Source: an uncultured Planctomycetales bacterium (GTDB lineage: Bacteria; Planctomycetota; SBBH01). Taken from it: a DNA stretch of 64,000 bases. The notes under the pieces were generated by a model. That model was not told the DNA's origin. It worked only from the letters and a program-made list of their open reading frames with translations, and searched no databases. A program made the position numbers and the translations under genes. Shown here one piece after another: positions 2,905 to 35,556 of the stretch (position 1 is the stretch's first letter; every line of letters begins with the position of its first letter). The stretch covers positions 8,150-72,149 of the forward strand of contig CAYVXZ010000001.1 of NCBI GenBank assembly GCA_964455625.1. The letters run 5' to 3'.

Positions 2905-2975
2905 AGCGGGTGAGGGGAATCGAACCCCCATGGCCAGCTTGGAAGGCTGGAGCTCTGCCATTGAGCTACACCCGC
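2905..2975 (-). tRNA. tRNA-Gly (anticodon UCC)
   Basis: The reverse complement folds as a cloverleaf. The acceptor stem is GCGGGTG/CACCCGC. The D-arm is GCTCAATGGCAGAGC. The anticodon stem-loop is CCAGC-CTTCCAA-GCTGG. The T-arm is GGTTCGATTCC. The discriminator is U and CCA is not encoded. Confidence 0.9.
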
Positions 2976-2977
2976 GA
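2934..2977. repeat. 44-bp direct repeat, copy 1 (tRNA-Gly positions 1-42 plus 2 upstream nt); putative att site
   Basis: Identical 44-mer 'ccagcttggaaggctggagctctgccattgagctacacccgcga' also present at 24001-24044 in the same orientation. Confidence 0.85.
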
Positions 2978-3944: not shown

Positions 3945-4370
3945 GTGGGGGCCTGGCCGGATAGCGCCCGCCCCCGATGGGCTTCCGGAGGGACTATGAG
4001 AAAGGACGAAAATACGAAGAGGTATTTTCAGCTCGGTCTGAAGATGCCGTTGAATTCGCCTCGCAGGGCGGAGCTGGCGCTTGATGAGCATAAAGCGGCG
4101 ATCATCCGCGGTCTTCGCATCGCTGCGAAGTGCTCCGTGAAGCTAAGCGAGGTCACGCCGTTCACCGCATGGAATGTAGGCTCGGGTCGCCATCCCGCAG
4201 CCGCGATCAGCGCCGGCGTGGCCTCCGAGATCCTGGCGGCTTTCGATGAAGAGGATGGGTTTCCGCCTGCAAGAGATGAGCTTTCCCAAAGCTTTCGGAA
4301 AATGGTTCGCTATCTCCGTGCGAAATGGGCTGCCGAGGAGGGGAATCGCCAGAATGGTTGGGCGAAATGA
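3945..4370 (+). CDS. hypothetical protein
   Basis: An ORF of 141 aa with no recognisable motif. It overlaps the start of the primase gene. Confidence 0.3.
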   Translation: MGAWPDSARPRWASGGTMRKDENTKRYFQLGLKMPLNSPRRAELALDEHKAAIIRGLRIAAKCSVKLSEVTPFTAWNVGSGRHPAAAISAGVASEILAAFDEEDGFPPARDELSQSFRKMVRYLRAKWAAEEGNRQNGWAK

Positions 4371-6241
4371 GCGCTCATGCTCCACTTCTTGGAGCCGCAC
4401 TTGCGCTGTTGATGCGGGGCTTCTCCGTGATCCCCCTCCGGCCGGGCGACAAGCGCCCCCAGACCCGCTGGGAAGCGTTTCAGACCAACCTCCCGACGGA
4501 AGTTCAAGTGCAAGCAGCCTGGGCGCACTGTCCCGACGCCAACGTCGGGATCGTGACGGGACGGGTGTCGGGGATCATTGTCCTCGACGTGGACGGCGCC
4601 GCAGGGAGGGAAAGCATTAGAGGAAAACACCTCCCGCCGACCCCGACTTGCAAGACCCCCCGGGGCGGACACTACTACTACCGCCACCCGGGTGGGCATG
4701 TCCCCAACGCCGTCGGCCTCCTCCCAGGGATCGATCTGCGCGCGGATGGTGGCTACGTGGTTACTGCCCCCTCTGTAAACGCGGAAGGTGTTCGGTACGA
4801 GTGGTGCGAGGGGCTGAGATTGGACGAGGTCGATCTCGCCCCGCCTCCACAGTGGCTCCTGGATCTTCTCGCCAAAAAGGAGCCCGCTCCTGTCGCTGTT
4901 CCGGTTGCCCAGGGTGCCGACGTCCTTCAAGGCGTCCCCGAAGGGCAACGGAACAATACCGCCGCGCGGATCGCCGGTCGCGTGCTGAAAGCGGGGCTCA
5001 ACCCCCAAGAGACGGAGGAGTTCTTGCTGTTCTGGAACCGCAAGAACAAGCCGCCCCTTCCAGAAGAAGAGGTCCGGGCCGTCGCCCGTTCGATCTCCGC
5101 AAGGCATGTTCCCGCTGGCGCTCCTCCCGCGGCGATCCCGGCGAAGTTCGCCGTCCCGATTAGCGCCCTTATGTCCGAGCCCGATGTCGAGATCGATTAC
5201 TTGGTCGAGCCTTTGGTCGAAGCGGGGACCATCGGCTTCGACGGCGGCGAGCCGAAGCTCGCGAAGTCGTGGCTCGCCCTGGCGATCTCGCTCGGCATTG
5301 CGACCGGGACGCCGGTCATGGACACCTTCCGTGTCCCGTTGCGGCGGCGGGTCCTGTACATTCAGGAGGAGGACTCGGCTTCCCTCGTGCGCCGACGCAT
5401 TCACCTGCTCTGCAGGGGGCATGGGATTCCGCTCCCCGATGACCAGTACTTTAGGTGTGCCGTCAGGACGGGGTTCCAGATCGACGATCCCGTGTGGTTC
5501 GCCGCGCTCTGCAAGGAGGTCGAGGAGTTCCGGCCGTCCTTGGTCGTCGCCGATGTTCTGAACAAGCTGCATTCGCAAGACGAGAACGAGCAGTCTGGCA
5601 TGACCCTGGTGATGCGCCAATTCGAGGAAATCCGGCGAAAGTTCGGATGCGCCTTTTTGATCGTCCATCACTTCCGTAAAGGCGATGCCTCCCGGGGGAA
5701 TCAGCGGCTACGGGGGTCGAGCGTCCTGGGCGGATGGAGCGAGTGCTCGCTGTACCTGAGCCCGGGGGATAACGGAACCCTTCGCGTGGAACGCGAGTCG
5801 AAGGCGGCACAGACGGAGCCCTTTTCGTTTCGACTGGAGGACCTGAAGGACGCGGACGGTCACCTTGTCGGCGTCCGCCTGGTCCACTTGGGGGAGGCGG
5901 TCGTCACCCCCAAAGACTCCAAGGGCGACGCCTTCCTTCGGGCCGTCCTGGAAGCTCATGCTGAGGGAGGCGAAGCCGCCTGCACGGCGGATGCCCTCGC
6001 CGCCAGGGCCAAGGTATCCGCGAACACGATCCGGACCTGGATGCAGAAGCTTTCCGACAGGGTCCATACTCATCAGATCCGGAACGCCGACGGCCGGGAG
6101 GTCACCGTCTACACCCCGATCACCGTGTCCGGGTCGACGAACTCAACTCAAAACCCCGGGGGAGCTGAGCTTCTGAGCCGTCCCGAAGGGGTCAAGGAGA
6201 GGGTCCCTACTCCCCCCTTCCCAGGTCCGGAGGCGGCATGA
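4367..6241 (+). CDS. bifunctional DNA primase/polymerase (Prim-Pol N-terminal domain) fused to P4/RepA-like AAA helicase domain
   Basis: The N-terminus ('GFSVIPLRPGDKRP...GIVTGRVSGIIVLDVDG') resembles the bifunctional primase-polymerase domain. The C-terminal half has RecA/DnaB-like P4-type ATPase motifs ('LYIQEEDSAS', 'FLIVHHFRK'). ATG at 4367. Confidence 0.7.
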   Translation: MSAHAPLLGAALALLMRGFSVIPLRPGDKRPQTRWEAFQTNLPTEVQVQAAWAHCPDANVGIVTGRVSGIIVLDVDGAAGRESIRGKHLPPTPTCKTPRGGHYYYRHPGGHVPNAVGLLPGIDLRADGGYVVTAPSVNAEGVRYEWCEGLRLDEVDLAPPPQWLLDLLAKKEPAPVAVPVAQGADVLQGVPEGQRNNTAARIAGRVLKAGLNPQETEEFLLFWNRKNKPPLPEEEVRAVARSISARHVPAGAPPAAIPAKFAVPISALMSEPDVEIDYLVEPLVEAGTIGFDGGEPKLAKSWLALAISLGIATGTPVMDTFRVPLRRRVLYIQEEDSASLVRRRIHLLCRGHGIPLPDDQYFRCAVRTGFQIDDPVWFAALCKEVEEFRPSLVVADVLNKLHSQDENEQSGMTLVMRQFEEIRRKFGCAFLIVHHFRKGDASRGNQRLRGSSVLGGWSECSLYLSPGDNGTLRVERESKAAQTEPFSFRLEDLKDADGHLVGVRLVHLGEAVVTPKDSKGDAFLRAVLEAHAEGGEAACTADALAARAKVSANTIRTWMQKLSDRVHTHQIRNADGREVTVYTPITVSGSTNSTQNPGGAELLSRPEGVKERVPTPPFPGPEAA

Positions 6242-6492
6242 GGAGCCCGCCCCCTGAAAAAGGCACGTCCCTTGCGGGAAATGCCCCCCGTGCGCTGTTC
6301 CGAGTCGAAGATGTGGCCCTGCTCCTGGGGATATCCCGCCGCCAGGTCTTCGCCATGCTGGCGGCGGGGCGAATCCCCGTTGTCCGCGTCGGAAAGCGCG
6401 TCGTCCGCTTCATCCCAGGCGAGATCGACGCATGGGTCCGGGCCGGCTGTCCCGGCGTCACGGAGTTCCGCCGCGCGCATCCCGAAAATTGA
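6238..6492 (+). CDS. AlpA/excisionase-family helix-turn-helix DNA-binding protein
   Basis: The motif 'VEDVALLLGISRRQVFAMLAAGRIPVVRVGKRVVRFIPGEIDAWV' is typical of MerR-like excisionase/AlpA HTH. It lies immediately upstream of the integrase. Confidence 0.7.
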   Translation: MRSPPPEKGTSLAGNAPRALFRVEDVALLLGISRRQVFAMLAAGRIPVVRVGKRVVRFIPGEIDAWVRAGCPGVTEFRRAHPEN

Positions 6493-6535
6493 CATGGATA
6501 TGGGAGGCGTGTTTCGATTTTTCCGGTAAGACCAA

Positions 6536-7780
6536 ATGGCGAGCATCTTCCAACCCGTCTACGTGAAGAAGCTCGCTGACGGCCGGCGTGTGCGCCGGAA
6601 GAGCAAGGTGTGGCGGATCGAGTATTTCGACCCCGGCCTCGGCAGGCGGGTGAGGAAGAAGGGGTTCCGGGACAAGATGGCGACCGACATCCTGGCGGCG
6701 GACCTCGAAAGGCGCGCAGAGAGGCGCGTCGTCGGCGCCGTGGACGAGTTCGAAGAAGCGCGGGCGACACCGCTCGAACAGCACTTTTCCGATTATCAGG
6801 TTCATCTGGCGAACTCCGGGGTCTCGCAGAAGCATCTCGCGGAAACATCGAGGCGCATCAAGGAACTTATCAGTCATTCAAAAGTCGTCCGGCTCCATGA
6901 GATCCGGCCCGCCCACTGTGATGGTGCCTTGAAGGCCATCCGGACGCGGGGAGCCGGCCCCCGCACCCTCAACACCTACGGCGCCTCGTGGCGCGCATTC
7001 ATTCGCTGGGCTATACGGTCCAGGCGTCTTTCCGCCGACGCGGACCCGACGGTGACGATCGCCAAGCTGCGCGAGTCGGAAGACGTGCGCCGGCAACGGC
7101 GCGCCCTCGTGCCGAAAGAAATCGAGCGGCTTCTGACCGCTACCGCCTCCCGGCCGCTCGCCGAGGCCATCCGAAAGAACCCCGCCCTATCCATGGAATC
7201 GAGGCGTGCCTTGACCCTGGAGGGGATCGAGAGGGCCTTGATCTACAAAACCGCGATCCTGACGGGGCTCCGCCGAGGCGAGATTGAGGCGCTTCGCTGG
7301 AGCGACCTCCAACTGGATTCCAAGAGACCGAACGTCCATGTGCGGGGGTCAGTCGCCAAGAACGGCCGCGAGGAATACATGCCCCTCCGGGCGGATTTGG
7401 CGCATGAACTTTCGGAATGGCGCAAGATGCGGGTAACCCGTCCGGACGAACCGGTCTTCCAGGGACTCCGGAGAATCGTGGATCACCTGAAACTGGACCT
7501 TCAGTTCGCGGGGCTGAAGTACAGGGACGAATCCGGCCGCTTCTTCGATTTTCACGCATTCAGACACTGCACCGCAAGCTACCTCGCGCGGGGCGGTGTG
7601 GCCCCCCGCGTGGCGCAAAGCCTGATGCGACACGCTGACATCGGGCTCACGATGGGCGCCTATACCGACCCGATGCTTCTGGACAAGGTCTCCGCCCTTG
7701 ATGCCTTGCCGATCCTGCCGAGGGCGGTGCTTCCGGAAGGCCTTTTCGTGGTCGAGGAGCCGGTTACGAAGACAGCCTAA
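6536..7780 (+). CDS. tyrosine site-specific recombinase (phage-type integrase)
   Basis: The C-terminal catalytic region shows the R...HxxR...Y signature ('LRRGEIEALRWSDL', 'HAFRHCTASYLARGGV', 'LMRHADIGLTMGAYTD'). Confidence 0.85.
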   Translation: MASIFQPVYVKKLADGRRVRRKSKVWRIEYFDPGLGRRVRKKGFRDKMATDILAADLERRAERRVVGAVDEFEEARATPLEQHFSDYQVHLANSGVSQKHLAETSRRIKELISHSKVVRLHEIRPAHCDGALKAIRTRGAGPRTLNTYGASWRAFIRWAIRSRRLSADADPTVTIAKLRESEDVRRQRRALVPKEIERLLTATASRPLAEAIRKNPALSMESRRALTLEGIERALIYKTAILTGLRRGEIEALRWSDLQLDSKRPNVHVRGSVAKNGREEYMPLRADLAHELSEWRKMRVTRPDEPVFQGLRRIVDHLKLDLQFAGLKYRDESGRFFDFHAFRHCTASYLARGGVAPRVAQSLMRHADIGLTMGAYTDPMLLDKVSALDALPILPRAVLPEGLFVVEEPVTKTA

Positions 7781-7856: not shown

Positions 7857-8456
7857 GTGGCTACGGGTCATGAAGGCCGGGCGGTGGAGCCCGGCGTATA
7901 CGACGAGGTGGGAAGAACTTTCCGCCGTGAGAAGATGAGTCTGACGATCCAAGGCTGGCCCTGCAAAATAAGATCACCCAACTTGCAGAAGGCGATTAGC
8001 CTCGTGCTACGTTCCGTCAGCAAGACCCATCCCGAGGATTATCAGAGGCTCATGAAGCGAGTGAGTGAATTCGGCCCCTTATCCATGCGCGATCGTAAAG
8101 ATGGAATCGTCGGTTGGTATGGCAAGCGGCGGCGCAGCGGGGAATATGACTTCGATTCTCCAGGGTCCATCCTCTTGCGCGAGGATGATTCGTTCTCCAT
8201 CGCAACTGTTGCTCACGAGCTTGGTCATGCATGCACGAGGGAGGATGATTTCTGGAAGCGCGATGGTTTAGATGCGGAGTGGGCGAGCGAGCTCTGCGCG
8301 GACATGTATGCGTACAAATGGGGTTTCGGCAGAGAGATTGCCCGAAGCCGCAAAGAGCGGGACTTCATGCATCACGGTCCACCGCCGGGAACTGTCGTCG
8401 AGTGCAATGGATCGAGGTTTCGGGTGACACGAGCTTTTTACATTAGACCTTTCTGA
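7857..8456 (+). CDS. hypothetical protein with HExxH motif (possible metallopeptidase-like)
   Basis: 'VAHELGHAC' matches HExxH. There is no other recognisable similarity. The gene is low-GC. Confidence 0.35.
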   Translation: MATGHEGRAVEPGVYDEVGRTFRREKMSLTIQGWPCKIRSPNLQKAISLVLRSVSKTHPEDYQRLMKRVSEFGPLSMRDRKDGIVGWYGKRRRSGEYDFDSPGSILLREDDSFSIATVAHELGHACTREDDFWKRDGLDAEWASELCADMYAYKWGFGREIARSRKERDFMHHGPPPGTVVECNGSRFRVTRAFYIRPF

Positions 8457-8571
8457 AATGCGCGACCGCTTCACCCTCGTAGCCACTCTTGATCAGAGCC
8501 TCACCCGATACAACCTGCCTTGTCATGGATGATGCCTCGTCTCGTCATGTGATGCGTTCGATCGGCACGAT

Positions 8572-8802
8572 GTGTTCGGGGCATCCATGCCAGCGAAACG
8601 TCCGCCCGTCTACGTCCTCAAGGTGACTCTTCAGGACAGCAAGCCGCCCATCTGGCGTCGGCTCGCCATCAAGCCGAACACCTCCCTCGCCAAGCTCTAT
8701 GCCCATGACCGAAGAGAATGTCCTGACCGGCATCGAGCTTGCCCTGAGCCGCCGCTAAGCTTTCCATCTCGGCATGATCGATCGTCCCATCGGGCATCCT
8801 GA
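8572..8802 (+). pseudogene. truncated fragment of plasmid pRiA4b ORF-3-like family protein
   Basis: The N-terminal 30 aa 'VYVLKVTLQDSKPPIWRRLAIKPNTSLAKLYAH' matches the conserved start of the PRiA4_ORF3 family. The reading frame then degenerates. Confidence 0.45.
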
Positions 8803-15285: not shown

Positions 15286-15784
15286 ACGACCGCTGAGATA
15301 TGCAAGCTTTCAGGTGGTACCAGACATCCTCTTCGCACATGGGAAGTTATTTACGCGTGCCCTGTGAGCGATATTAAATGGAAGAAATTCTATCCACAGT
15401 CCGAATTGCATGGAGGTGGTCCGCCAGAGCTAGTTAAGTTGGACAATACATGCGCCCCCTGATGCCATTCAGCGGCCCTTCCAGCGGTTCGCGTTTGTCG
15501 GGGGACACCAGCCCCTCTTGATTGACGTCCTGCGTCATATTCTGACGCGAACTGACTTTCTGTCGGTCTGACCTGCTCCTACGCTTTCGGAAGGTCTTCC
15601 TGCAAGACGATGCCCTTCCCTGTGTCTTTGGCCCCTCGGGTTGGCTTGATATAGCTGTCCCCTCCCCTCGGACCCCACGGAAATACCTCTCCGTGCAAAG
15701 AACGGGTATCTCGAAGGTACATCGACACCCGCCTGATCGGGTCTGACCGTTTCGGACCCCCTCTCACCCCTTCCAGAAGCAGGT

Positions 15785-16117
15785 ATGTCCCTTGCGGTAT
15801 TACCAGCCATGGCCAAGGTCCGCTCCCTTTTGGGACAGGGGTTCAGGAAGTCCTTTTCGCTGGGCAAGGTCCTGGCGACTCCTGGCGCTCTGCAAGCCCT
15901 GGAGGATTCCGGTCAGGCCGCCATCGAATTCTTACGCAGACATTTGTCTCGCGACTGGGGCGAGGTCGACCCGGAAGATGCGGCCGCCAATGACCGTGGC
16001 TTGATCGAAGGCGGTCGACTGCTGTCAGCCTACAAGACCGCGAAAGGCGTCCGACTATGGGTCATCACTGAAGCCGATCGGTCGGCGACGACCCTACTTC
16101 TACCGGAGGACTACTGA
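15785..16117 (+). CDS. hypothetical protein (110 aa)
   Basis: An ORF in the low-GC cargo segment with no assignable domain. Confidence 0.4.
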   Translation: MSLAVLPAMAKVRSLLGQGFRKSFSLGKVLATPGALQALEDSGQAAIEFLRRHLSRDWGEVDPEDAAANDRGLIEGGRLLSAYKTAKGVRLWVITEADRSATTLLLPEDY

Positions 16118-16269
16118 TGAAATCGGGCGATGCGACAGCGCTGAAAGCGCTCCACGAGATCCTGACCATCCTGGATTCCCATACCTGTCCTGGACCTGAC
16201 GAGGTCGACCAGATTGAGAAGCTCGTCCGGAAGGCGATCTGCTCCATCGATCAGGATGTGAAGTGGTGA
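16117..16269 (+). CDS. small hypothetical protein (50 aa)
   Basis: ATG at 16117 overlaps the preceding stop (TGATG). The ORF is not in the track because it is below 60 aa. Confidence 0.25.
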   Translation: MKSGDATALKALHEILTILDSHTCPGPDEVDQIEKLVRKAICSIDQDVKW

Positions 16270-16571
16270 AGTCATCAATCGAGATGGACAGGTCGGACCT
16301 GGCCACGTTCCTGGGAGCCCTTATTGCCAAACTCCATGCAGACAGCTGGGCTCTGACCGGCCTCGCCGAGTCCCACTTCCAATCAGGCCGGGACTACGAC
16401 GCCATGCACTCATTGGCCGGCTCCATGGGAAAGACGGCCGCCTTAGTGGCCGGGGTAAAGACCCACCTCTGTCGTGACTGCCAGCTCATGGGGATCTCCG
16501 AGCATGTCGTCCTGACCCCAAAAGAGACTGCCCCTCGAAAGCGCCCAAAACACAGGAAGGTCGCCAGATGA
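16263..16571 (+). CDS. hypothetical protein (102 aa)
   Basis: The ORF overlaps the previous stop and has no domain assignment. Confidence 0.35.
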   Translation: MVKSSIEMDRSDLATFLGALIAKLHADSWALTGLAESHFQSGRDYDAMHSLAGSMGKTAALVAGVKTHLCRDCQLMGISEHVVLTPKETAPRKRPKHRKVAR

Positions 16572-16582
16572 GGCTGGAAGGA

Positions 16583-16813
16583 CTACAGCCCTTCAAGGAG
16601 CTGTTTTGGCGGGCATCCCAAGGCCCGAGCCAGGGCAACAATCGTCTTGAGGGAAGGGTTTCGCTCAGCTCGTTCGATCATACCGATGAAGCGCGGATGA
16701 AGCCCTGCTCGATGGGCCAGTTCTTCCTGACTCCAATTTGCATTTTCGCGGTACTGGTAGATCGTCGCTCCGAACGCCTGGACAAGGGGGTCCTTCTTTT
16801 TCCGTGAAGGCAC
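16583..16813 (-). CDS. XRE-family (Cro/CI-type) helix-turn-helix transcriptional regulator
   Basis: 'QAFGATIYQYRENANWSQEELAHRAGLHPRFIGMIERAERNPSLKTIVALARALG' is a canonical HTH_XRE motif. Confidence 0.8.
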   Translation of the reverse strand: MPSRKKKDPLVQAFGATIYQYRENANWSQEELAHRAGLHPRFIGMIERAERNPSLKTIVALARALGCPPKQLLEGL

Positions 16814-16828
16814 ATATGAAAGCTAGAA

Positions 16829-17416
16829 ATGAAATACGATTGTAGACAGGTACAGTTGTATGTATTTACCATCCGGGTGGGAGGGAGAGCCGTTATGAGC
16901 CAGTGTCAGCCCGAACGCAACTTCGTCAGCACCTACCTCCGCCGATGCGAGGCGTACGACTTCATCGTCGAAGACCTCCCGCTCTTTCCGGAGCGCGGCC
17001 TGTGGGACACGATCGACCTGGCTGGATTCGACCTCATGAAGGGCCGCGGGGTCCTCTGCGAGGTCCTCCCCCTCCCACCGGGAAACGTCATCGGAGAACC
17101 TGATCGCCAAACCATCCAGAGGCTCGAAAAGAAGCTGGTCCATGCGTACAGGTTCGTGAGGGAGCGGATGGTGGTCCTGAAGCGGGGCATCCGCTTCCAG
17201 GTCTGGTCCCCCAGTCTTTCCGCTCCACTGAAGAGGGACCTCCAGAGGATTGCTAAGAAGGCTCATCTCCCCGTGGATGTGATCACGGACGAGGCGTATG
17301 CCGCTCGGGTCGATCAACTCCTCAAGAAAGCCAAGCAGGATAGGACGCTTTGGGGCGAGCCTTTCTATCGGCTGATGCGGATCGCTCAACACGCCGGCAA
17401 AAGCATGCGGAGGTGA
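16829..17416 (+). CDS. hypothetical protein
   Basis: An ORF of 195 aa (alternative start at the Met near 16895). It is divergent from the XRE regulator. No domain is recognised. Confidence 0.4.
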   Translation: MKYDCRQVQLYVFTIRVGGRAVMSQCQPERNFVSTYLRRCEAYDFIVEDLPLFPERGLWDTIDLAGFDLMKGRGVLCEVLPLPPGNVIGEPDRQTIQRLEKKLVHAYRFVRERMVVLKRGIRFQVWSPSLSAPLKRDLQRIAKKAHLPVDVITDEAYAARVDQLLKKAKQDRTLWGEPFYRLMRIAQHAGKSMRR

Positions 17417-17425
17417 CATGATCGG

Positions 17426-17758
17426 ATGGTCCTGGAAGGAGAGCACATGCAAAGCAGAATGATGGGGACGGTCTTACTGGCTTTCCTGACAGCAGGTTGC
17501 AACGAGCAGGAAAAGCTTCAGAAAGAAAACGCCTCTCTCGAAACACAAACCCAGAAGCTGGAATCGGAAATCGCGCAGCTCAAGGATATTCCGGGATGGC
17601 ACTTCTATATGGGAGTGGACGCCATGAATCGGAAAGACTGCCAAGTGGCTAAGAACGAATTCGATTGGGTGGTGTCGAAGACCAATGGTTTACTCAAGTC
17701 AGAAGCCAATGACCTCTGGTATGAGTTGGCAAGGCCGGAAGGGGGATCTCAACGATGA
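17426..17758 (+). CDS. lipoprotein with coiled-coil segment
   Basis: Lipobox 'LTAGC' after a hydrophobic signal. A heptad-rich region follows. Confidence 0.5.
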   Translation: MVLEGEHMQSRMMGTVLLAFLTAGCNEQEKLQKENASLETQTQKLESEIAQLKDIPGWHFYMGVDAMNRKDCQVAKNEFDWVVSKTNGLLKSEANDLWYELARPEGGSQR

Positions 17759-18513
17759 AATGCATAGTTGCGGGTGTGGCCCCCCTGATGATGGGGCTTC
17801 TGCTGGTCGGATGCGGTGATGAGAAAGAATTGGACCATCTCAAGGCTCGGAATTCCGAATTGGCAAGCAGGGTATCAGACCTCGAAAAAGAACTCTCAAA
17901 ACTGAAGGAAGCCGAAAGCTTTCAAGGCGCGCTTTTAGCACTCGATCGGCAAGACCATGACGTCGCGCTCATGTATCTCAAAAGTGTTGTCACTAATCAG
18001 AGAAGCCCGCTGGCACCATTCGCGAACCGGTATTTAAAACAAGTTGAATCCACCATTGAGGCAAGGCGTCAGGAGCAAGCGCGAAAAGAAAAGGAGAAAA
18101 AGCGGAGGACACAGGTCCTGGAAATCAATCGTCAATACGAGGCCGCCCTATTGTCCGGCGACAAACAGAAGATTTCCCTGCTGAGACCAAAATGGGAAGC
18201 GTTCCATCCGACTGCGAGAAAGGTCAGTGAAGATTTTGGGCGAGGCAAGGAGAAAGGACAGGCGTGTGCCAGATCCGGCACGGGAAGCCTTGGCCAGATC
18301 GGAGCTTTTCCAAACCACCTAGTGGATAACCTCGTCGACAAGATGTACGACCAAATGTCCGGTGGATTCGGATTTCGTGGAGAATCACAGGATTTTAGGC
18401 TTGGTTGGAAATGCGGTTTTATGGAAGCAAATGGTATCGGCGGTGAACCTTACAGGCGACTTCTGGAAAAGATTGCAGATCGAACCAGTGAAGCAATCAA
18501 GCAAGATGAATAA
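17755..18513 (+). CDS. lipoprotein with coiled-coil and K/E-rich region
   Basis: Signal plus lipobox 'LLLVGCG'. It overlaps the previous stop. Confidence 0.5.
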   Translation: MKCIVAGVAPLMMGLLLVGCGDEKELDHLKARNSELASRVSDLEKELSKLKEAESFQGALLALDRQDHDVALMYLKSVVTNQRSPLAPFANRYLKQVESTIEARRQEQARKEKEKKRRTQVLEINRQYEAALLSGDKQKISLLRPKWEAFHPTARKVSEDFGRGKEKGQACARSGTGSLGQIGAFPNHLVDNLVDKMYDQMSGGFGFRGESQDFRLGWKCGFMEANGIGGEPYRRLLEKIADRTSEAIKQDE

Positions 18514-18518
18514 GCCTG

Positions 18519-19220
18519 ATGCTGGCCGCTGCGTACGACCTGGTCATGATCCTGGACGGGCTGACCCCCGCTGAGAGGGACCTTGGTGGGATCTCCCGTT
18601 CCTTGGCCCGCTTCCTGTCCCAGCGGGGCGTCGACCAGGTATGGGCTCATGCCGGATCGGATGACCCGGAAGAGATCCGAAAGTCGCTACTCGACACTTT
18701 GGAAACCTGCCGGAGAAACGCCGTGGATGGGGAGAGATTTCCAGTCCATTTGGTCTGTCGGAGAAATCAGGAGGGAGTGATTTGCGGGAGTGGCCGTAGG
18801 GCAGGTCTCCTGACCTGGGATGAGCTATCGAAGCGGCTCGAAGTCATCAACCGGGCCATGAATGGCGCCCTCCTCGTCAACATCTCCTCCTGTCGTGGGA
18901 TGCAGGAAGTCGCCTCTTTCCGGCCTCCTCCTCTCAAGAGGCCGTCCTACGCCATGGTGGGGTTTCTGGAATCAGTTCCCGCCGGGGTCAACCGCAGAGC
19001 GAACGAACTCTTCTATGGACAGCTGATAGAGGGCTCGACGGTCCAGGGGGCAGTCAGGACCGTCAACCGGCAGATGGGCAGGAAGATCCTTTATTCGACT
19101 GTCCCGACAGACCGCCGAAAACTGTCCAGGGGCCTCTGGGACCGGCATCCGGGGCTCCGGGTTGCAGGGTCCTCCATATACCCATGCCCAATTTCCGGCC
19201 AGTCCCCGCACGAAAAATAA
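18519..19220 (+). CDS. hypothetical protein, possible caspase/CHAT-like (clan CD) fold
   Basis: A His-Gly segment ('VHLVCRRNQEGVICGSG') is followed by 'LLVNISSCRG', reminiscent of the caspase QACRG catalytic Cys motif. Weak; inference only. Confidence 0.35.
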   Translation: MLAAAYDLVMILDGLTPAERDLGGISRSLARFLSQRGVDQVWAHAGSDDPEEIRKSLLDTLETCRRNAVDGERFPVHLVCRRNQEGVICGSGRRAGLLTWDELSKRLEVINRAMNGALLVNISSCRGMQEVASFRPPPLKRPSYAMVGFLESVPAGVNRRANELFYGQLIEGSTVQGAVRTVNRQMGRKILYSTVPTDRRKLSRGLWDRHPGLRVAGSSIYPCPISGQSPHEK

Positions 19221-19831
19221 AAGATTCTTCTCGCCGCCTATCCAGGGGTAAGTCCCCATCCGATCAGAAATATCTTCCTCTCAAGGTACCCGACGTATTT
19301 CTGGCACCCATGTCTCCAATCGCATCAAATCTCGAATATCCCCTGCCAGTTATTCTGGAAAGTAAACGTGTGGGCATAGCCGCCAGCCGATCACGCAAGA
19401 TGAACTCCAGAACCCGATTCGGACCCATCGAGATCCCCCTCCGATCCATCCTATTGGTCGAGGCGTCAGACGATTCCACGACAGCATGGGTCAAGAATCT
19501 GGCGATCCGGGAAGCCACCAGAGGCAGACGGGTCGTCTGGGTCTCCCTCCGGGAATCCGCCGATGCCCTACAGCCGCTCGCGGAGAAGGGGGTGACCATC
19601 GTCGACATCGGCCGGATCGACGAGGCGACCTTCTTCCAGTTGATCCGGCTCAAAGGGAAGACTGACCGAATCCTCTTCGTAGACGGCCTGGACTTGGTCA
19701 GAGACAAAGGTCAGATAGACCCTGACCTGGCGGTAGAGACAGCCGTGGGGATTCTCATGAACCAGGCCAAGAGATACCCATTCACAGCCGTGGCCACCTA
19801 CCAGCAGGAACCAGCCCTCGATACTATCTGA
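19184..19831 (+). CDS. hypothetical protein, possibly degenerate RecA/KaiC-like fold
   Basis: 'RRVVWVSLRESADAL...ILFVDGLDLV' resembles RecA-superfamily strands without an intact Walker A. Inference. Confidence 0.3.
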   Translation: MPNFRPVPARKIKDSSRRLSRGKSPSDQKYLPLKVPDVFLAPMSPIASNLEYPLPVILESKRVGIAASRSRKMNSRTRFGPIEIPLRSILLVEASDDSTTAWVKNLAIREATRGRRVVWVSLRESADALQPLAEKGVTIVDIGRIDEATFFQLIRLKGKTDRILFVDGLDLVRDKGQIDPDLAVETAVGILMNQAKRYPFTAVATYQQEPALDTI

Positions 19832-19928: not shown

Positions 19929-21158
19929 TTGGGTGCTTGCAACGAGGAGATGGGTATGACTGAAGCCACGCGCTCATATGGCGACCGTGCGGACCAGGTC
20001 CACCAGTTCTTCGAGAAGAAGCGAGAGTGGTCCAAGATCAAGGACAGGATAGTTGGGTCCTACATTTCCTGTTACCTGAAGACGGTTCAGCATCGTGGTC
20101 GTCCCATCATCATTGTGGATGCCTTTTGCGGCCCTGGGCGTTTCGGCGACGGTAATGATGGATCGCCAGTGATCATTTGTGACACGATCGCCAAGATGAA
20201 CGCCGGCGTTGGCATTGGGTGCTTGTTCGCCGATTCACATCAAAAACATCGTGACGAGCTTGAAGCTTGCCTGGCTGAACACATGAAAACCGGAATTGCA
20301 GGGAAGCCTCTGTCGGATTTCTCAGAGGCTCTTTCACAAGCATTAACAGTAGGTAGAGGCTCAACCTTGTTCTTCTACCTGGACCCATATGGCATCAAAG
20401 ATTTGGATTTCGAGGTCGTGAAACAAATCTACGAGCGGGACACCGCCCAAAGCACTGAGGTTCTGATTAATTTCAATTTCAAAGCCTTCATGAGAATGAG
20501 CGGGAACTGGTCCTACGCTGATTCAGTCGACGAAGTGGCCCGGAAGGTGAAGGAATCGAAAATCGAAAAAGTTAACAGCGTCATGGGCGGCGACTACTGG
20601 TTGGCAATCGTCACCAACCCAGCTCTGAACAAGATTCAGCGAGAAGACGCGGTAGTGGACGCGTATATGGGGCAAGTCAGAAAATACTTCAAGTACACCT
20701 ACTCGATTCCTGTGAAGGAAATGGATGAGGGTGATCGGGACGTTCCGGCTGACGACCTAGCAAAGTATCACCTGATTTTCGGCACGCGCAGTCGCAGAGC
20801 AGTTCTGTACATGAACGATGTGGCCGGCAACGCGTTGGAGCCGTACTTCAAACAGTTCAAAGACGGTCTCCTTTTCGAGATGACTCCGGAAAGGTACGCA
20901 GCAGCCTCGAGGGAGGCAGTGAAGGCTGAAATCCTGAAGGTGCTTGCCAGTGGTCCTATGAAAAGGAAAGAAATCTACGAAGCCGTGGTCCCGGGTTTTT
21001 TTCTGCACTACCGCTCAAAACATTACCGAGCCATGATTGACGAAATGGTCTTCAGTGAGGGACAGCTATTTGCCGATCCAAAGACGATGAAGCGAAAAAA
21101 CCAGCTTAACGAAACGACGCGCCTCGCGACGAAACCTTGGCCAGCTGGCCAGCGCTAA
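19929..21158 (+). CDS. three-Cys-motif partner protein TcmP-like
   Basis: About 400 aa. It lies directly upstream of, and is translationally coupled (TAATG) to, a Gp37/Gp68 three-Cys protein, which is the characteristic TcmP arrangement. Assignment is by context and length. Confidence 0.5.
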   Translation: MGACNEEMGMTEATRSYGDRADQVHQFFEKKREWSKIKDRIVGSYISCYLKTVQHRGRPIIIVDAFCGPGRFGDGNDGSPVIICDTIAKMNAGVGIGCLFADSHQKHRDELEACLAEHMKTGIAGKPLSDFSEALSQALTVGRGSTLFFYLDPYGIKDLDFEVVKQIYERDTAQSTEVLINFNFKAFMRMSGNWSYADSVDEVARKVKESKIEKVNSVMGGDYWLAIVTNPALNKIQREDAVVDAYMGQVRKYFKYTYSIPVKEMDEGDRDVPADDLAKYHLIFGTRSRRAVLYMNDVAGNALEPYFKQFKDGLLFEMTPERYAAASREAVKAEILKVLASGPMKRKEIYEAVVPGFFLHYRSKHYRAMIDEMVFSEGQLFADPKTMKRKNQLNETTRLATKPWPAGQR

Positions 21159-21883
21159 TGAGCGCCACGTCAACCATAGAGTGGACCAACGCAACCTGGA
21201 ATCCGGTCACAGGTTGCACAAAGATCAGTCCTGGGTGCAAGCATTGCTACGCTGAAGTTTTTGCGGAGCGTTGGCGAGGGATCTCCGGGCATCATTTCGA
21301 GCAGGGATTTGACCTCCGGCTTTGGTTTAAGCGGCTAGAGCTCCCGCTTACCTGGAAAACGCCGCGAACCATTTTCGTGAACAGCATGAGCGACCTCCTT
21401 CATGAGAAGGTGCCCACTTCATTTATTCGGAGGGTATTCCAGACCATGGAGCAGGCATCGTGGCACACGTTCCAGGTTCTGACCAAGCGCTCGGAAAGGC
21501 TGGCAGAACTGGCACCAACCCTAGACTGGCCATCCAATGTGTGGATGGGGGTGTCCATTGAAAGCGCTGATTATCTGTGGCGAGCCGATCACCTTCGTGA
21601 AGTGCCTGCTGCGGTGAGATTCTTGTCCTTGGAGCCTTTGCTGGGACCTCTGGGAGTCATAGATCTGACAGACATTGATTGGGTCATCGTGGGCGGGGAG
21701 AGCGGTCCTGGTGCTAGACCTATGGAGGCCGACTGGGTTAGGGACATCAGCAAGCAGTGCCGGAGAGAAAATGTCTCATTCTTCTTTAAGCAGTGGGGCG
21801 GCGTACAAAAGAAGCGGACAGGAAGGACTCTCGATGGGCGTACGTGGGATGGCATGCCAAAGGGTCATCTTCTGGGAGTCTGA
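21158..21883 (+). CDS. phage Gp37/Gp68 family (DUF5131) three-Cys-motif protein
   Basis: N-terminal 'IEWTNATWNPVTGCTKISPGCKHCYAE' carries the C-x6-C-x2-C motif typical of the family. ATG at 21158 overlaps the upstream stop. Confidence 0.7.
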   Translation: MSATSTIEWTNATWNPVTGCTKISPGCKHCYAEVFAERWRGISGHHFEQGFDLRLWFKRLELPLTWKTPRTIFVNSMSDLLHEKVPTSFIRRVFQTMEQASWHTFQVLTKRSERLAELAPTLDWPSNVWMGVSIESADYLWRADHLREVPAAVRFLSLEPLLGPLGVIDLTDIDWVIVGGESGPGARPMEADWVRDISKQCRRENVSFFFKQWGGVQKKRTGRTLDGRTWDGMPKGHLLGV

Positions 21884-21973: not shown

Positions 21974-23116
21974 TTAAGGTTGCACAGCCAGTTTTAACAT
22001 TTCAGCCATCAACTCCTCTCGAACCAGAGGTTTCCCATTGAGGATTACTTGTCCGAAGGTGTCATTTTCAATTTCTCTCCCAGCACTATCGTAGGCATGG
22101 ACATGAATGCCAATTTCTTGTGGCCGATCCATAGTCCAAACGAATGCTGGGGTGGAAGCCCATATCTCATAGGTACACCCACGCAATTCATCTAAATTTA
22201 ACGATTTGTCGACAAGGATCACCTTCTTGTTTTGAGTGATCACATCGAAAACTCGTTTTAACGGATTACTAACGATGGCCTTCTTGCTCCAATTCGAATC
22301 TCTGCCACAACTAGCACAAAGATGTTTTCTGTGCGGAGCTGCGGCAAAGGCCCCAAGGTCCAAGTGTGGTTCGTTGCAATAGCTGCACATTAGGCAATCG
22401 AGTGGCAACTTCTTCTCCACAGCTTGAACAAATGACCACGCAGCCGGTGGTGTTGCGTTGATCCTCACGGTGGGCTCTTTAGAAAGAAAAAGTGACGGCT
22501 CCTTGAGCGATAACTGGATTGCCTTATAGGTCTTATCAATTATTTTTGTTCCGCCCGCCTTGATTCTTGCGTGCACATGAATTCCAACCTCGCAGCTTGG
22601 CTTCACACGGGTGCTGAGCGCTGTCGGGAGTGAAGCCCAGACGCCAACTCCTCCAGGATAGTCTGCTGGATCAATAATGACCGGGTCGATCACGTAGCTC
22701 AGCGGCATGGTGGCATTCGAGCAAACGATGCGCTGACCAGGTCTCTTTGGAGCTGTAGCTAGATCCGCCTGAGTACCCCAGTAGACTTGGTGTGTACGGC
22801 ACCACATCCGCTCTTTGCCATGTCTGTACTTTCCCGCTGGAATGATCTCGCATGGCAATACGGCATCTTCCCCGGATTTTTCTTTTGGAAAACTACCTAG
22901 TACGTCTTCGGAGTGAACTGCGATATTTCCTATTGTTCTGCCACGAGACCACACGATCGCTCTGCGATGTGCCAGCAAGTCGTCGTTTGGCGGCTGTTCT
23001 TTTCCAAGTATCTGAATGGGGCGAACCACGCCCTTTTTTTGGGCCTTGTCGTAATCCTCCTCAGCAAGCTCCAGGTAGGTACCGTCGAGATGTAGTACGC
23101 GTCTGATGAATGGCAT
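21974..23116 (-). CDS. hypothetical Cys-rich protein with internal duplication
   Basis: An ORF of 380 aa with repeated '(E)(V/I)GIHVHA' modules and a 'CSYC...CASC' cluster. No known domain. It is convergent with the TcmP pair. Confidence 0.45.
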   Translation of the reverse strand: MPFIRRVLHLDGTYLELAEEDYDKAQKKGVVRPIQILGKEQPPNDDLLAHRRAIVWSRGRTIGNIAVHSEDVLGSFPKEKSGEDAVLPCEIIPAGKYRHGKERMWCRTHQVYWGTQADLATAPKRPGQRIVCSNATMPLSYVIDPVIIDPADYPGGVGVWASLPTALSTRVKPSCEVGIHVHARIKAGGTKIIDKTYKAIQLSLKEPSLFLSKEPTVRINATPPAAWSFVQAVEKKLPLDCLMCSYCNEPHLDLGAFAAAPHRKHLCASCGRDSNWSKKAIVSNPLKRVFDVITQNKKVILVDKSLNLDELRGCTYEIWASTPAFVWTMDRPQEIGIHVHAYDSAGREIENDTFGQVILNGKPLVREELMAEMLKLAVQP

Positions 23117-23405: not shown

Positions 23406-23642
23406 ATGACTACTGCGACGATTGCCCAGGAGGCCGTGCGGCTCATCAAGCATCTGCCTCGTGAGAAGGCGCAGGCTCTTCTGGAATACGCCCGGTACTT
23501 GGTCGAAAGCACCGGCGAGGAGGTCTGGGAGCACAGGCTGAGTGACCCCAGGCATGCCAAGAAGCTGAAGGACTTGGGCGAAAAGGCGCGGAAAGAGTTC
23601 CGCGACGGGAAGACCCGGCCGCTCGACTCCGACAAGATGTGA
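23406..23642 (+). CDS. type II antitoxin (78 aa)
   Basis: A small acidic/basic protein whose stop overlaps the toxin start (ATGA). This is a typical TA pair organisation. Confidence 0.6.
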   Translation: MTTATIAQEAVRLIKHLPREKAQALLEYARYLVESTGEEVWEHRLSDPRHAKKLKDLGEKARKEFRDGKTRPLDSDKM

Positions 23643-23902
23643 TCTCACACGCCTCGGGTTCCTTCCGGAGGCAGCTCCAGACCCTCCAAAAAGATGTTCA
23701 GAAGAGGGCTCGATCAGCCTTCAGGTTGTTCAAGCGGAATCCCCATCACGCCTCCCTGAAGTTCAAGCGCCTCTCGGGCTTGACGGACTACTGGTCTGCC
23801 CGGATCGGCCCTCACTACCGCGCCGTAGCAGTCCGTGAAGGTTCGACCCTGATCTGGTTCTGGATCGGCAGCCACGCCGACTTCGACCGGGATTTCAGGT
23901 AG
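23639..23902 (+). CDS. RelE/ParE-family toxin (type II TA, mRNA interferase-like)
   Basis: 87 aa. 'LKFKRLSG...YWSARIGPHYRAVAV...LIWFWIGSHADF' matches the RelE/ParE plasmid-stabilisation toxin core. Confidence 0.7.
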   Translation: MISHASGSFRRQLQTLQKDVQKRARSAFRLFKRNPHHASLKFKRLSGLTDYWSARIGPHYRAVAVREGSTLIWFWIGSHADFDRDFR

Positions 23903-23932: not shown

Positions 23933-24000
23933 AGGCTTTCTGGAAGCTCCGGCAGGCTTTCTCTCCCTCGGGAAACGGCCGGTCTCGGGTCGGAACTGCA

Positions 24001-24044
24001 CCAGCTTGGAAGGCTGGAGCTCTGCCATTGAGCTACACCCGCGA
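24001..24044. repeat. 44-bp direct repeat, copy 2 (5' fragment of tRNA-Gly; putative att site)
   Basis: Perfect identity to 2934-2977. The flanks diverge. Confidence 0.85.
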
Positions 24045-34584: not shown

Positions 34585-34657
34585 GCTACCGTAGCTCAGC
34601 CGGCAGAGCACGTCCTTGGTAAGGACGAGGTCAAGGGTTCGAATCCCTTCGGTAGCT
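34585..34657 (+). tRNA. tRNA-Thr (anticodon GGU)
   Basis: Cloverleaf fold. Acceptor stem GCTACCG/CGGTAGC. Anticodon stem-loop CGTCC-TTGGTAA-GGACG. T-arm AAGGGTTCGAATCCCTT. Confidence 0.85.
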
Positions 34658-34747
34658 CCGTTTCGCATATCGGGGGCCGTCTTCGGGAGCGGCCATCAGC
34701 GCCACCAGCGCAACCGGGAAAAGCGTTATCCGTTATCGAAGAGGGCT

Positions 34748-35444: not shown

Positions 35445-35556
35445 CCCCGGCGACGACCTACTTTCGCAGTTGACCCACTATCATCGGCCCGCAGGGCTTA
35501 ACGACCGTGTTCGGAATGGGAACGGGTGTGGCCCCTACGGTATGGTCGCCGGGAAA
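35445..35556 (-). rRNA. rrf: 5S ribosomal RNA (orphan copy, no adjacent 23S/16S)
   Basis: The reverse complement is 'UCCCGGCGACCAUACCGUAGGGGCCACACCCGUUCCCAUUCCGAACACGGUCGUUAAGCCCUGCGGGCCGAUGAUAGUGGGUCAACUGCGAAAGUAGGUCGUCGCCGGGG'. It aligns to bacterial 5S along its length (…CCCAU.CCGAAC…, …GCCGAUG.UAGUG…, …GCGA.AGUAGG…). The ends are complementary and form helix I. Confidence 0.85.

Follow-up and report, generated by a model that had tools for sequence, protein, structure and literature searches.

Nine small genes in the low-GC arm of a putative tRNA-Gly island of an uncultured Planctomycetales bacterium are probably mosaic cargo rather than one system

We analysed a 64,000-nucleotide stretch of DNA from an uncultured Planctomycetales bacterium (GenBank assembly GCA_964455625.1, contig CAYVXZ010000001.1, positions 8,150 to 72,149 of the forward strand), which we call the window. 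It includes a tightly packed block of nine genes at 15785-19831 that a previous reading of the sequence alone had taken for a single operon with the flavour of a defence or abortive-infection system. Our results suggest that the block is probably mosaic cargo, namely the left part of the low-GC (guanine-plus-cytosine) arm of a tRNA-Gly island of about 21 kb, and not one system. Using folds, motifs, repeats, gene neighbourhoods and the absence of conserved gene order, we infer which genes may be regulated together, which may serve in exclusion or defence, and where activity has probably been lost.

All nine open reading frames (ORFs) that the sequence-only reading described are present where it placed them, and we number them genes 1-9 in coordinate order, from 15785-16117 through 19184-19831. 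Several of the longest-ORF starts probably lie too far upstream. The genes, with revised starts, and two non-coding features shared with a 15-kb contig (L010) are as follows.

Leader, 15534..15784, + strand: conserved non-coding sequence upstream of gene 1, found by blastn against L010 (counterpart 632-885).
Gene 1, 15809..16117 (ORF from 15785), + strand: 102 amino acids (aa) according to the NCBI call; the L010 homologue has the same start.
Gene 2, 16117..16269, + strand: 50 aa; its start overlaps the stop of gene 1.
Gene 3, 16263..16571, + strand: 102 aa.
Gene 4 (XRE), 16583..16813, - strand: HTH_3 match.
Gene 5, 16895..17416 (ORF from 16829), + strand: 173 aa; start behind GGAGGGAG.
Gene 6, 17449..17758 (ORF from 17426), + strand: start behind GGAAGGAG, giving MQSRMMGTVLLAFLTAGC.
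Gene 7, 17755..18513, + strand: lipoprotein of 252 aa.
Gene 8, 18519..19220, + strand: 233 aa, caspase/CHAT fold.
65-nt conserved element, 19165..19228, + strand: between genes 8 and 9, 80% identical to L010 6857-6921.
Gene 9, about 19370-19397..19831 (ORF from 19184), + strand: start set from the length of its relatives.

The start of gene 9 was placed at about 19370-19397 because its relatives measure 115-146 aa. Calling the longest ORF has thus probably created the 37-nt overlap between genes 8 and 9, which with the revised start are separated by a gap of about 150-180 nt. The XRE gene converges on gene 3 and diverges from gene 5, and the block comprises at least three transcription units, namely genes 1-3, the oppositely oriented XRE gene, and genes 5-8, to which gene 9 may or may not belong. 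When the single proteins were searched against Pfam, NCBIfam, PADLOC, PHROGs and PDB sequences, nothing significant was found except for XRE. With PADLOC v2, eight products (all but genes 2 and 4) were tested and none matched, gene 7 giving only coiled-coil noise.

Relatives of the block's proteins were collected by a full-HMMER search of 1.84 billion representative proteins with a concatenated query of genes 3, 5, 7 (C-terminal half), 8 and 9. The 122 matches were split into families by query segment: 25 proteins matched the gene 3 segment and 23 the gene 5 segment (own proteins or fragments counted in both), 69 matched that of gene 8 (partial sequences and its own protein or fragments included), and four matched that of gene 9, which is itself one of the four and so has three relatives. 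The C-terminal half of gene 7 returned only itself. A word-indexed search with concatenated genes 2, 3, 5 and 9, in which the candidate list was probably saturated, found nothing. The same type of search with gene 8 returned a self-fragment only, and only five proteins with a profile of its family (alignment A1, below).

Although the nine genes had been read as one operon, their order was not conserved when its recurrence was checked. Twelve loci with gene 8 relatives, drawn from metagenomes, from Ignavibacteria, Deltaproteobacteria, Algoriphagus, Winogradskyella and Prochlorococcaceae genomes and from one viral contig, held no member of the gene 3, 5 or 9 families, and 80 loci with gene 1 relatives held none of genes 2, 3, 5, 8 and 9. 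A partial match to the order was seen only in L010, which ends in a large serine recombinase. There, gene 1 (77% identity), gene 2 (65%), an opposite-strand XRE gene and a gene 9 relative (34%) follow the order of the window, and between them genes for ClpP, AAA and Sel1 proteins and an HTH_17 protein (whose MazG-type match is weak and sub-threshold) replace genes 3 and 5-8. Nucleotide homology between the window and L010 is confined to the leader with gene 1, part of gene 2, and the 65-nt element. Since the gene order is not conserved, we regard the block as an assortment of cargo.

Base composition is consistent with this conclusion. The low GC content that had been noted for the block was confirmed at 0.545-0.597 per kb across 15-20 kb, with flanks of 0.67-0.71 at 9-15 kb (a resistance-nodulation-division (RND) efflux operon, on the left) and 0.66-0.74 beyond 24 kb. 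The low-GC stretch exceeds the nine genes and runs from about 15.3 to 24.0 kb. GC content at third codon positions (GC3) ranges from 0.51 in gene 7 to 0.75 in gene 5, a spread that argues for mixed origins.

Alternatively, all nine genes, or XRE with genes 5-9, could constitute a single new multi-gene system of defence or abortive infection, with a sensor or regulator in control of a caspase-like effector, a nuclease-like protein and lipoproteins of the envelope. This would be in keeping with the close packing of genes 5-8 behind the divergent XRE gene, with the nuclease-like and caspase-like folds described below, with an island location adjoining the defence candidates PDC-M30/M41 and a ParE-like toxin, and with the defence-rich sites at which gene 8 relatives are found. 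However, these families were combined at no other locus examined, PADLOC gave no match, and GC3 differs strongly between adjoining genes. The would-be effector lacks its catalytic His, and gene 5 also lacks a His that is near-invariant in its family. Moreover, a contig from another sample (L002, SRR6202010) that is otherwise 100% identical carries an in-frame deletion of 558 bp (window 17121-17678, with 3-nt microhomology at the junction), which creates a fusion of the gene 5 N-terminus with the gene 6 C-terminus. Taken together, these observations make a multi-gene system improbable. The defence flavour that had been attributed to the nine-gene unit comes instead from the TcmP and DUF5131 genes and the ParE-like toxin nearby, and from the sites of gene 8 relatives.

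Gene 8 belongs to an unnamed family of proteins of about 205 aa. In alignment A1, which holds gene 8 and 44 relatives (45 sequences), D13, W100, C125 and G127 are invariant and the family motif reads hLHFxxHG...NMxSCxG. An AlphaFold2 (AF2) model built on A1 reached a predicted local distance difference test score (pLDDT) of 83 and a predicted template-modelling score (pTM) of 0.79, with residues 200-233 disordered. Its best Foldseek match in the PDB was the SAVED-CHAT filament 8tl0 (E 1.4e-4, query-normalised template-modelling score (TMq) up to 0.57), followed by caspase-7, -3, -4, -11 and -1. The family profile, run against PDB sequences, likewise placed the CHAT protein 8tl0 first (E 0.014) and caspases next, with the HG strands aligned. 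Model, structural matches and profile thus agree on the caspase/CHAT-like fold that had been proposed for this gene. Sub-threshold Pfam matches among the members of A1 were to clan-CD families only (C13 in 9 of 45, C25 in one and CHAT in one). The window protein itself has no above-threshold Pfam match to CHAT, Peptidase_C14, C13 or C25, and the 45 A1 members gave only noise against PADLOC.

The catalytic dyad proposed along with this fold, an H...G and an SSCRG motif, stood only in part. The Cys of SSCRG is present as Cys125, but the H...G half was not borne out: all 44 aligned relatives have His at the catalytic position (HG in 43, HA in one), and the window copy has Arg81-Arg82 there. The His that had been singled out is H77, the first and less conserved one, in 'LHF'. 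The gene 8 sequence is identical in independent assemblies. Because Arg-Arg stands in place of His-Gly, the window copy is probably inactive as a protease and, as far as its residues can tell, may be a relic or a pseudo-enzyme.

The neighbours of gene 8 relatives vary and include a HigB/Gp49 and XRE pair, Mrr, GIY-YIG, DUF3276, clostripain, FRG, HNH and AAA_15/21 proteins. The genome loci carry the labels Ignavibacteria, Deltaproteobacteria, genera of Bacteroidota, and Cyanobacteria, and one lies in a P2-like enterobacterial prophage. In this prophage (L105, IMGVR_UViG_3300010259_000015), the relative at 5956-6597 has the tail-fibre assembly gene on one side and the FI sheath gene on the other, and the flanking sequence shares about 93% identity with Escherichia phage P2_AC1 and related phages. 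The slot between these two genes in phage P2 is that of fun(Z), which is non-essential and blocks T5. The Z/fun locus has been named as a site where antiviral defences are found (PMC13586616). Based on this slot and on the other neighbourhoods, a single-gene defence role is plausible for intact members of the family. We consider it possible, though doubtful, that this 'mini-CHAT' family of about 205 aa represents a new stand-alone caspase-like anti-phage defence, of which the window copy has been inactivated or repurposed, for example as a decoy or regulator.

Two further sequences of this family were seen in altered form. In L013 (Ignavibacteriales), the relative at 7971-8597 is split by a stop codon into ORFs 7971-8441 and 8445-8597 and is probably a pseudogene; the helicase-like genes that adjoin it also look fragmented. 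In a 991-bp contig (L104, Logan SRR11866713), the first 161 codons of gene 8 (to 18997) are followed by the inverted sequence 19346-19223, with 4-nt microhomology (GCAG) at the junction; this is due either to a genuine inversion or to chimeric reads.

The gene 5 family carries the motifs GEIDVIG and LCEVxTH. Gene 5 was modelled with AF2 as part of an artificial fusion with gene 9, using a cleaned joint alignment, and its half of the model has a pLDDT of about 90. The DSSP assignment (H6-17, E23-31, E36-46, E51-57, H71-91, E98-104) gives a core order of helix, three strands, helix and strand, modelled at a pLDDT above 90, which is a restriction-endonuclease-like topology. Weak matches to UPF0102 (2 of 21 relatives, best E 0.003) and NERD (2 of 21) were seen among its relatives, and hhalign of gene 5 with E. 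coli YraN was also weak (E 0.12), the two being aligned on the GEIDxI...EV motif. The family profile found no informative match among PDB sequences. In alignment A3, E56 is invariant and D41 near-invariant; both are kept in gene 5, in which the Lys of the catalytic motif is absent and the H60 position is replaced. This near-invariant His is missing from the window copy and its closest relative, and the window copy and P0007 (51% identical over the aligned stretch) form a subgroup with the same substitutions. Judging from the model, gene 5 would be nuclease-fold-like with a topology of PD-(D/E)xK type, although this is not proven.

An 18-nt inverted repeat (16872-16889 / 17066-17083, 89% complementary) was also observed here. 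Its left arm holds the ribosome-binding site of gene 5 and its right arm lies inside the gene; it could mask translation, or be due to chance.

The substitutions in genes 5 and 8 raise the alternative that the block is decaying, functionless cargo, the remnant of a larger L010-type element whose genes are drifting into pseudogenes. Arg-Arg in place of His-Gly in gene 8, the disordered C-terminal tail of its product, which reads into a conserved intergenic element, and the deviations of gene 5 at positions near-invariant in its family would all be expected of decay. The same can be said of the deletion variant L002, the rearranged junction in L104 and the lack of a recombinase of its own in the low-GC arm. 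Nevertheless, none of the nine frames is interrupted, their ribosome-binding sites are plausible and their stops are coupled to starts; genes 1, 2, 3 and 9 also retain the conserved residues of their families. The substitutions that gene 5 shares with P0007 suggest a divergent lineage rather than random decay, and the L104 junction may be a chimera. We therefore consider wholesale decay unlikely and favour mosaic cargo, in which individual genes such as gene 8 may have lost activity.

For gene 9, a RecA/KaiC-like fold lacking Walker A had been suggested, and our results are in agreement. In its half of the fusion model (pLDDT about 90), strands alternate with helices. The 50 best PDB matches by Foldseek are to DnaB, T7 gp4, KaiC, RecA and Twinkle, and among the viral models of BFVD, replicative helicases (DnaB-like or other) and primase-helicases make up nearly all of the named matches. 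A Walker A motif (GxxxxGK[ST]) is absent from all four members of the family. A Walker-B-like strand, ILFVDGLD, is present, and D96, G97 and L98 in it are invariant. Neither an informative match of the family profile to PDB sequences nor any Pfam model matching gene 9 was found. On the strength of these residues, gene 9 is predicted to be incapable of canonical nucleoside triphosphate (NTP) binding. Its origin as a fragment of the helicase domain in the island's AAA_25 protein was considered and rejected (hhalign E 0.4).

The gene that follows the 65-nt element is gene 9 in the window and one for an M41-like peptidase in L010. In the window, the last part of the gene 8 ORF, which encodes the end of the disordered tail, reads through this element, which is non-coding in L010.

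The resemblance of gene 9 to the ATPase domain of DnaB-type helicases, on an island that encodes a Prim-Pol/AAA_25 protein, bears on another alternative, that of an early region of phage or satellite type. Here XRE would be an immunity repressor, the lipoproteins would be superinfection-exclusion or spanin-like proteins, and gene 9 would be an accessory of the replicase. The divergent XRE layout is in keeping with this alternative, gene 1 relatives and DUF5131 are found in phages, and PHROG matches were obtained for gene 7 (Rz-like spanin, E 0.061) and gene 9 (phrog_6910, E 4e-4). However, these weak matches are at noise level, and no structural genes, lysis genes, holin or endolysin were seen. 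Viral contigs yielded no member of the gene 9 family, and no sequence relation was seen between gene 9 and the AAA_25 domain of the island. A phage or satellite early region is accordingly very improbable, and mosaic cargo remains our preferred explanation.

The first genes of the block have relatives on many mobile elements. By tblastn, the gene 1 family was found in 181 plasmid and 6 phage records, in one of which the domain forms the C-terminal part of a DUF6094 protein, and relatives were confirmed in at least 581 of 600 metagenome candidate stretches. Gene 1 is a small protein of a very common family of plasmids, integrative and conjugative elements (ICEs) and phages. The counterpart of gene 2 in L010 (matched over 46 aa, E 1e-16) lies directly after the gene 1 homologue. 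The gene 3 family consists of proteins of about 100 aa with an invariant LCxxC motif and a basic tail (alignment A7); gene 3 has no Pfam match and was found neither in L010 nor in the gene 1 loci.

A 587-nt blastn match (15534-16118 against L010 632-1195) is 73% identical and spans the leader and gene 1; read by eye in the alignment, the leader core is visibly better conserved than this. The leader (15534-15784) is probably a promoter or operator region. It includes a perfectly conserved CACGGA...TCCGTG hairpin. The candidate of a structured RNA in the leader was dropped, as the fold was not significant (z -1.08).

The assignment of 16583-16813 on the minus strand to the XRE regulators proved correct (HTH_3, E 8.8e-18, 64.5 bits against a cut-off of 23). 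The 81-nt gap between the divergent XRE gene and gene 5 holds a promoter-like site at 16843-16872, of a kind whose matches are not above chance frequency.

Genes 6 and 7 had been described as two coiled-coil lipoproteins, and their sequences bear this out: each has a lipobox (LTAGC in gene 6, LLVGC in gene 7) followed by heptad segments. The coiled coil of gene 6 is short, and gene 7 combines a coiled coil with a C-terminal domain. Both gave weak NCBIfam matches of Lpp/OprI type (E 0.006), and gene 6 had no tblastn match in plasmid or phage records. We also considered whether the two genes are paralogues and rejected this, since BLASTP found no similarity between them.

The surroundings of the block place it within the putative island, whose other features are listed here.

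Intact tRNA-Gly(TCC), 2904-2975, - strand: found by ARAGORN and Rfam.
Left copy of a 44-nt repeat, 2934..2977, - strand: the 5' 42 nt of tRNA-Gly(TCC) plus 2 nt; putative attachment (att) site.
Prim-Pol, PriCT_1 and AAA_25 replication protein, 4325..6241, + strand: Pfam E 2.3e-34, 4.5e-14 and 1.1e-29.
Tyrosine recombinase of the phage integrase family, 6536..7780, + strand: PF00589, E 4.6e-17.
TcmP, 19929-21158, + strand: TIGR04474, E 1.9e-33.
DUF5131, 21137-21883, + strand: PF07505, E 5.7e-101.
Protein of 380 aa, 21974-23116, - strand: IGIHVHA twice (internal duplication-like) and a CxxC...CxxC cluster.
ORF of 78 aa and ParE-like toxin (23639-23902), together 23406..23902, + strand: PF24732, E 1.2e-13.
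Right copy of the 44-nt repeat, 24001..24044, - strand: truncated tRNA-Gly(TCC) at about 23998-24042, with the 5' 42 nt identical and the T-arm replaced.

The two 44-nt direct repeats are 100% identical at a spacing of 21,067 bp, and none would be expected by chance. The 3' half of tRNA-Gly occurs only once in the window and is not repeated. At the right copy, Rfam reports a weak tRNA (23974-24042, - strand, 32.8 bits) that ARAGORN missed, and nothing but this tRNA fragment was found by Rfam in the island. A TetR/OEP/HlyD/AcrB (RND) efflux operon with 70% GC lies between the repeats. TcmP and DUF5131 match PADLOC candidates (PDC-M30A E 2.4e-18; PDC-M41B E 2.3e-114; PDC-M30B E 6.6e-110), and a DUF5131 gene adjoins a gene 1 relative once, at metagenome locus L028. 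The Cys-rich 380-aa protein had no match in the libraries tried. At its right end, the island carries the 78-aa ORF and the ParE-like toxin as a putative toxin-antitoxin pair, which ends about 100 nt from the truncated tRNA. Repeats of att type at the edges of the low-GC arm alone were looked for and none were found. The sequence upstream of both 44-nt copies is also similar. Outside the island, a 5S rRNA (35445-35553, - strand) lies close to a tRNA-Thr (34585-34659, + strand), and the window gave no match to 23S or 16S rRNA.

Several points weigh against mosaic cargo on an integrated island. With regard to the island, no empty site or excision product was seen, the contigs from the same samples, among them those reached through a radical-SAM protein of the right flank, stopping inside the repeat; the two tRNA-Gly copies may be paralogues of which only the right one is disrupted; and the efflux operon of 70% GC between the repeats means that the 21 kb may be composite. 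With regard to the block, conserved synteny was looked for at about 90 loci, of which many are short, with hidden Markov models of modest depth, and genes 6 and 7 were assessed without a deep homologue search. Genes 5-8 are tightly spaced (gaps of 32, -4 and 5 nt) behind a single regulator, and could still cooperate in this particular element. The fold of gene 9 was obtained from an artificial fusion with gene 5, and its Foldseek output came without aligned residues. Loss of the catalytic His from gene 8 is no proof of lost function, and the defence role of its family, plausible as it is, is argued from gene neighbourhoods.

With these points in mind, we propose that an island of about 21 kb, bracketed by the 44-bp repeat and equipped with its own tyrosine integrase and Prim-Pol/AAA_25 replicase, would have integrated here, and that the block would have been assembled from genes that circulate independently among mobile elements. 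The first unit would be genes 1 and 2, with or without gene 3, behind the conserved leader; these may be proteins of the 'early' or 'leading-region' type known from plasmids, ICEs and phages. In the second unit, XRE as the putative repressor would control the divergent operon of genes 5-8, whose two lipoproteins (genes 6 and 7) possibly serve in surface or entry exclusion. The third unit would be gene 9, a DnaB/RecA-fold protein without a P-loop, behind the conserved 65-nt element. Intact gene 8 relatives, which keep His-Gly...Cys and are solitary genes at variable, defence-rich sites, would most likely act as single-gene protease effectors against phage.

The nine-gene 'system' was thus not upheld and should not be pursued as a new defence operon. 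Instead, the block offers a clean example of how the cargo arms of islands can be built of interchangeable modules around short conserved non-coding elements. It also points to four uncharacterised families: a compact caspase/CHAT fold, a nuclease fold, a P-loop-less RecA fold and a small LCxxC protein. The compact caspase-like family is worth testing because one of its members is found at the Z/fun defence locus of a P2-like prophage.

Similar to other tRNA-integrated islands with a tyrosine integrase, the element described here has a tRNA-derived direct repeat, an integrase, a replication gene and a lower GC content, and its cargo includes toxin-antitoxin and defence candidates. It differs in that the repeat is the 5' part of the tRNA, where a 3' part would be usual, the integrase is set about 3.5 kb inward, and a host-like efflux operon with 70% GC stands mid-island. 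Both components of the PADLOC candidates PDC-M30/PDC-M41 are matched by TcmP and DUF5131 directly downstream of the block; however, this pair lies outside the nine genes, and no link to the block was found elsewhere.

The individual proteins can be compared with known families in the same way. Gene 9 shares the core fold of DnaB, T7 gp4, KaiC and RecA and a Walker-B-like strand that ends in an invariant DGL, but it is only about 140 aa long and belongs to a family without a P-loop and without a Pfam match. Gene 5 shares its core order with UPF0102/YraN and NERD, and its family motif GEIDVIG...LCEV resembles GGEIDLI...FVEV of YraN. In contrast to those families, to which its sequence matches are weak (E 0.003-0.12), it has an extra C-terminal helical part with a conserved PFFRxLQIL, and in contrast to PD-(D/E)xK families, the motif Lys is replaced in the gene 5 family (EVxTH) and the window copy also lacks the His. 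The gene 8 family differs from SAVED-CHAT 8tl0 and the caspases in its small size (about 205 aa), in lacking a sensor domain such as SAVED, TPR or NACHT, in scores below the Pfam thresholds, in having no conserved partner gene among the loci seen and, for the window copy, in Arg-Arg. Nevertheless, gene 8 has the alpha/beta fold of these proteins (Foldseek E 1.4e-4 to 1e-3, TMq 0.45-0.57), and its family motif matches both the 'LHFIGHG' strand and the Cys strand of CHAT.

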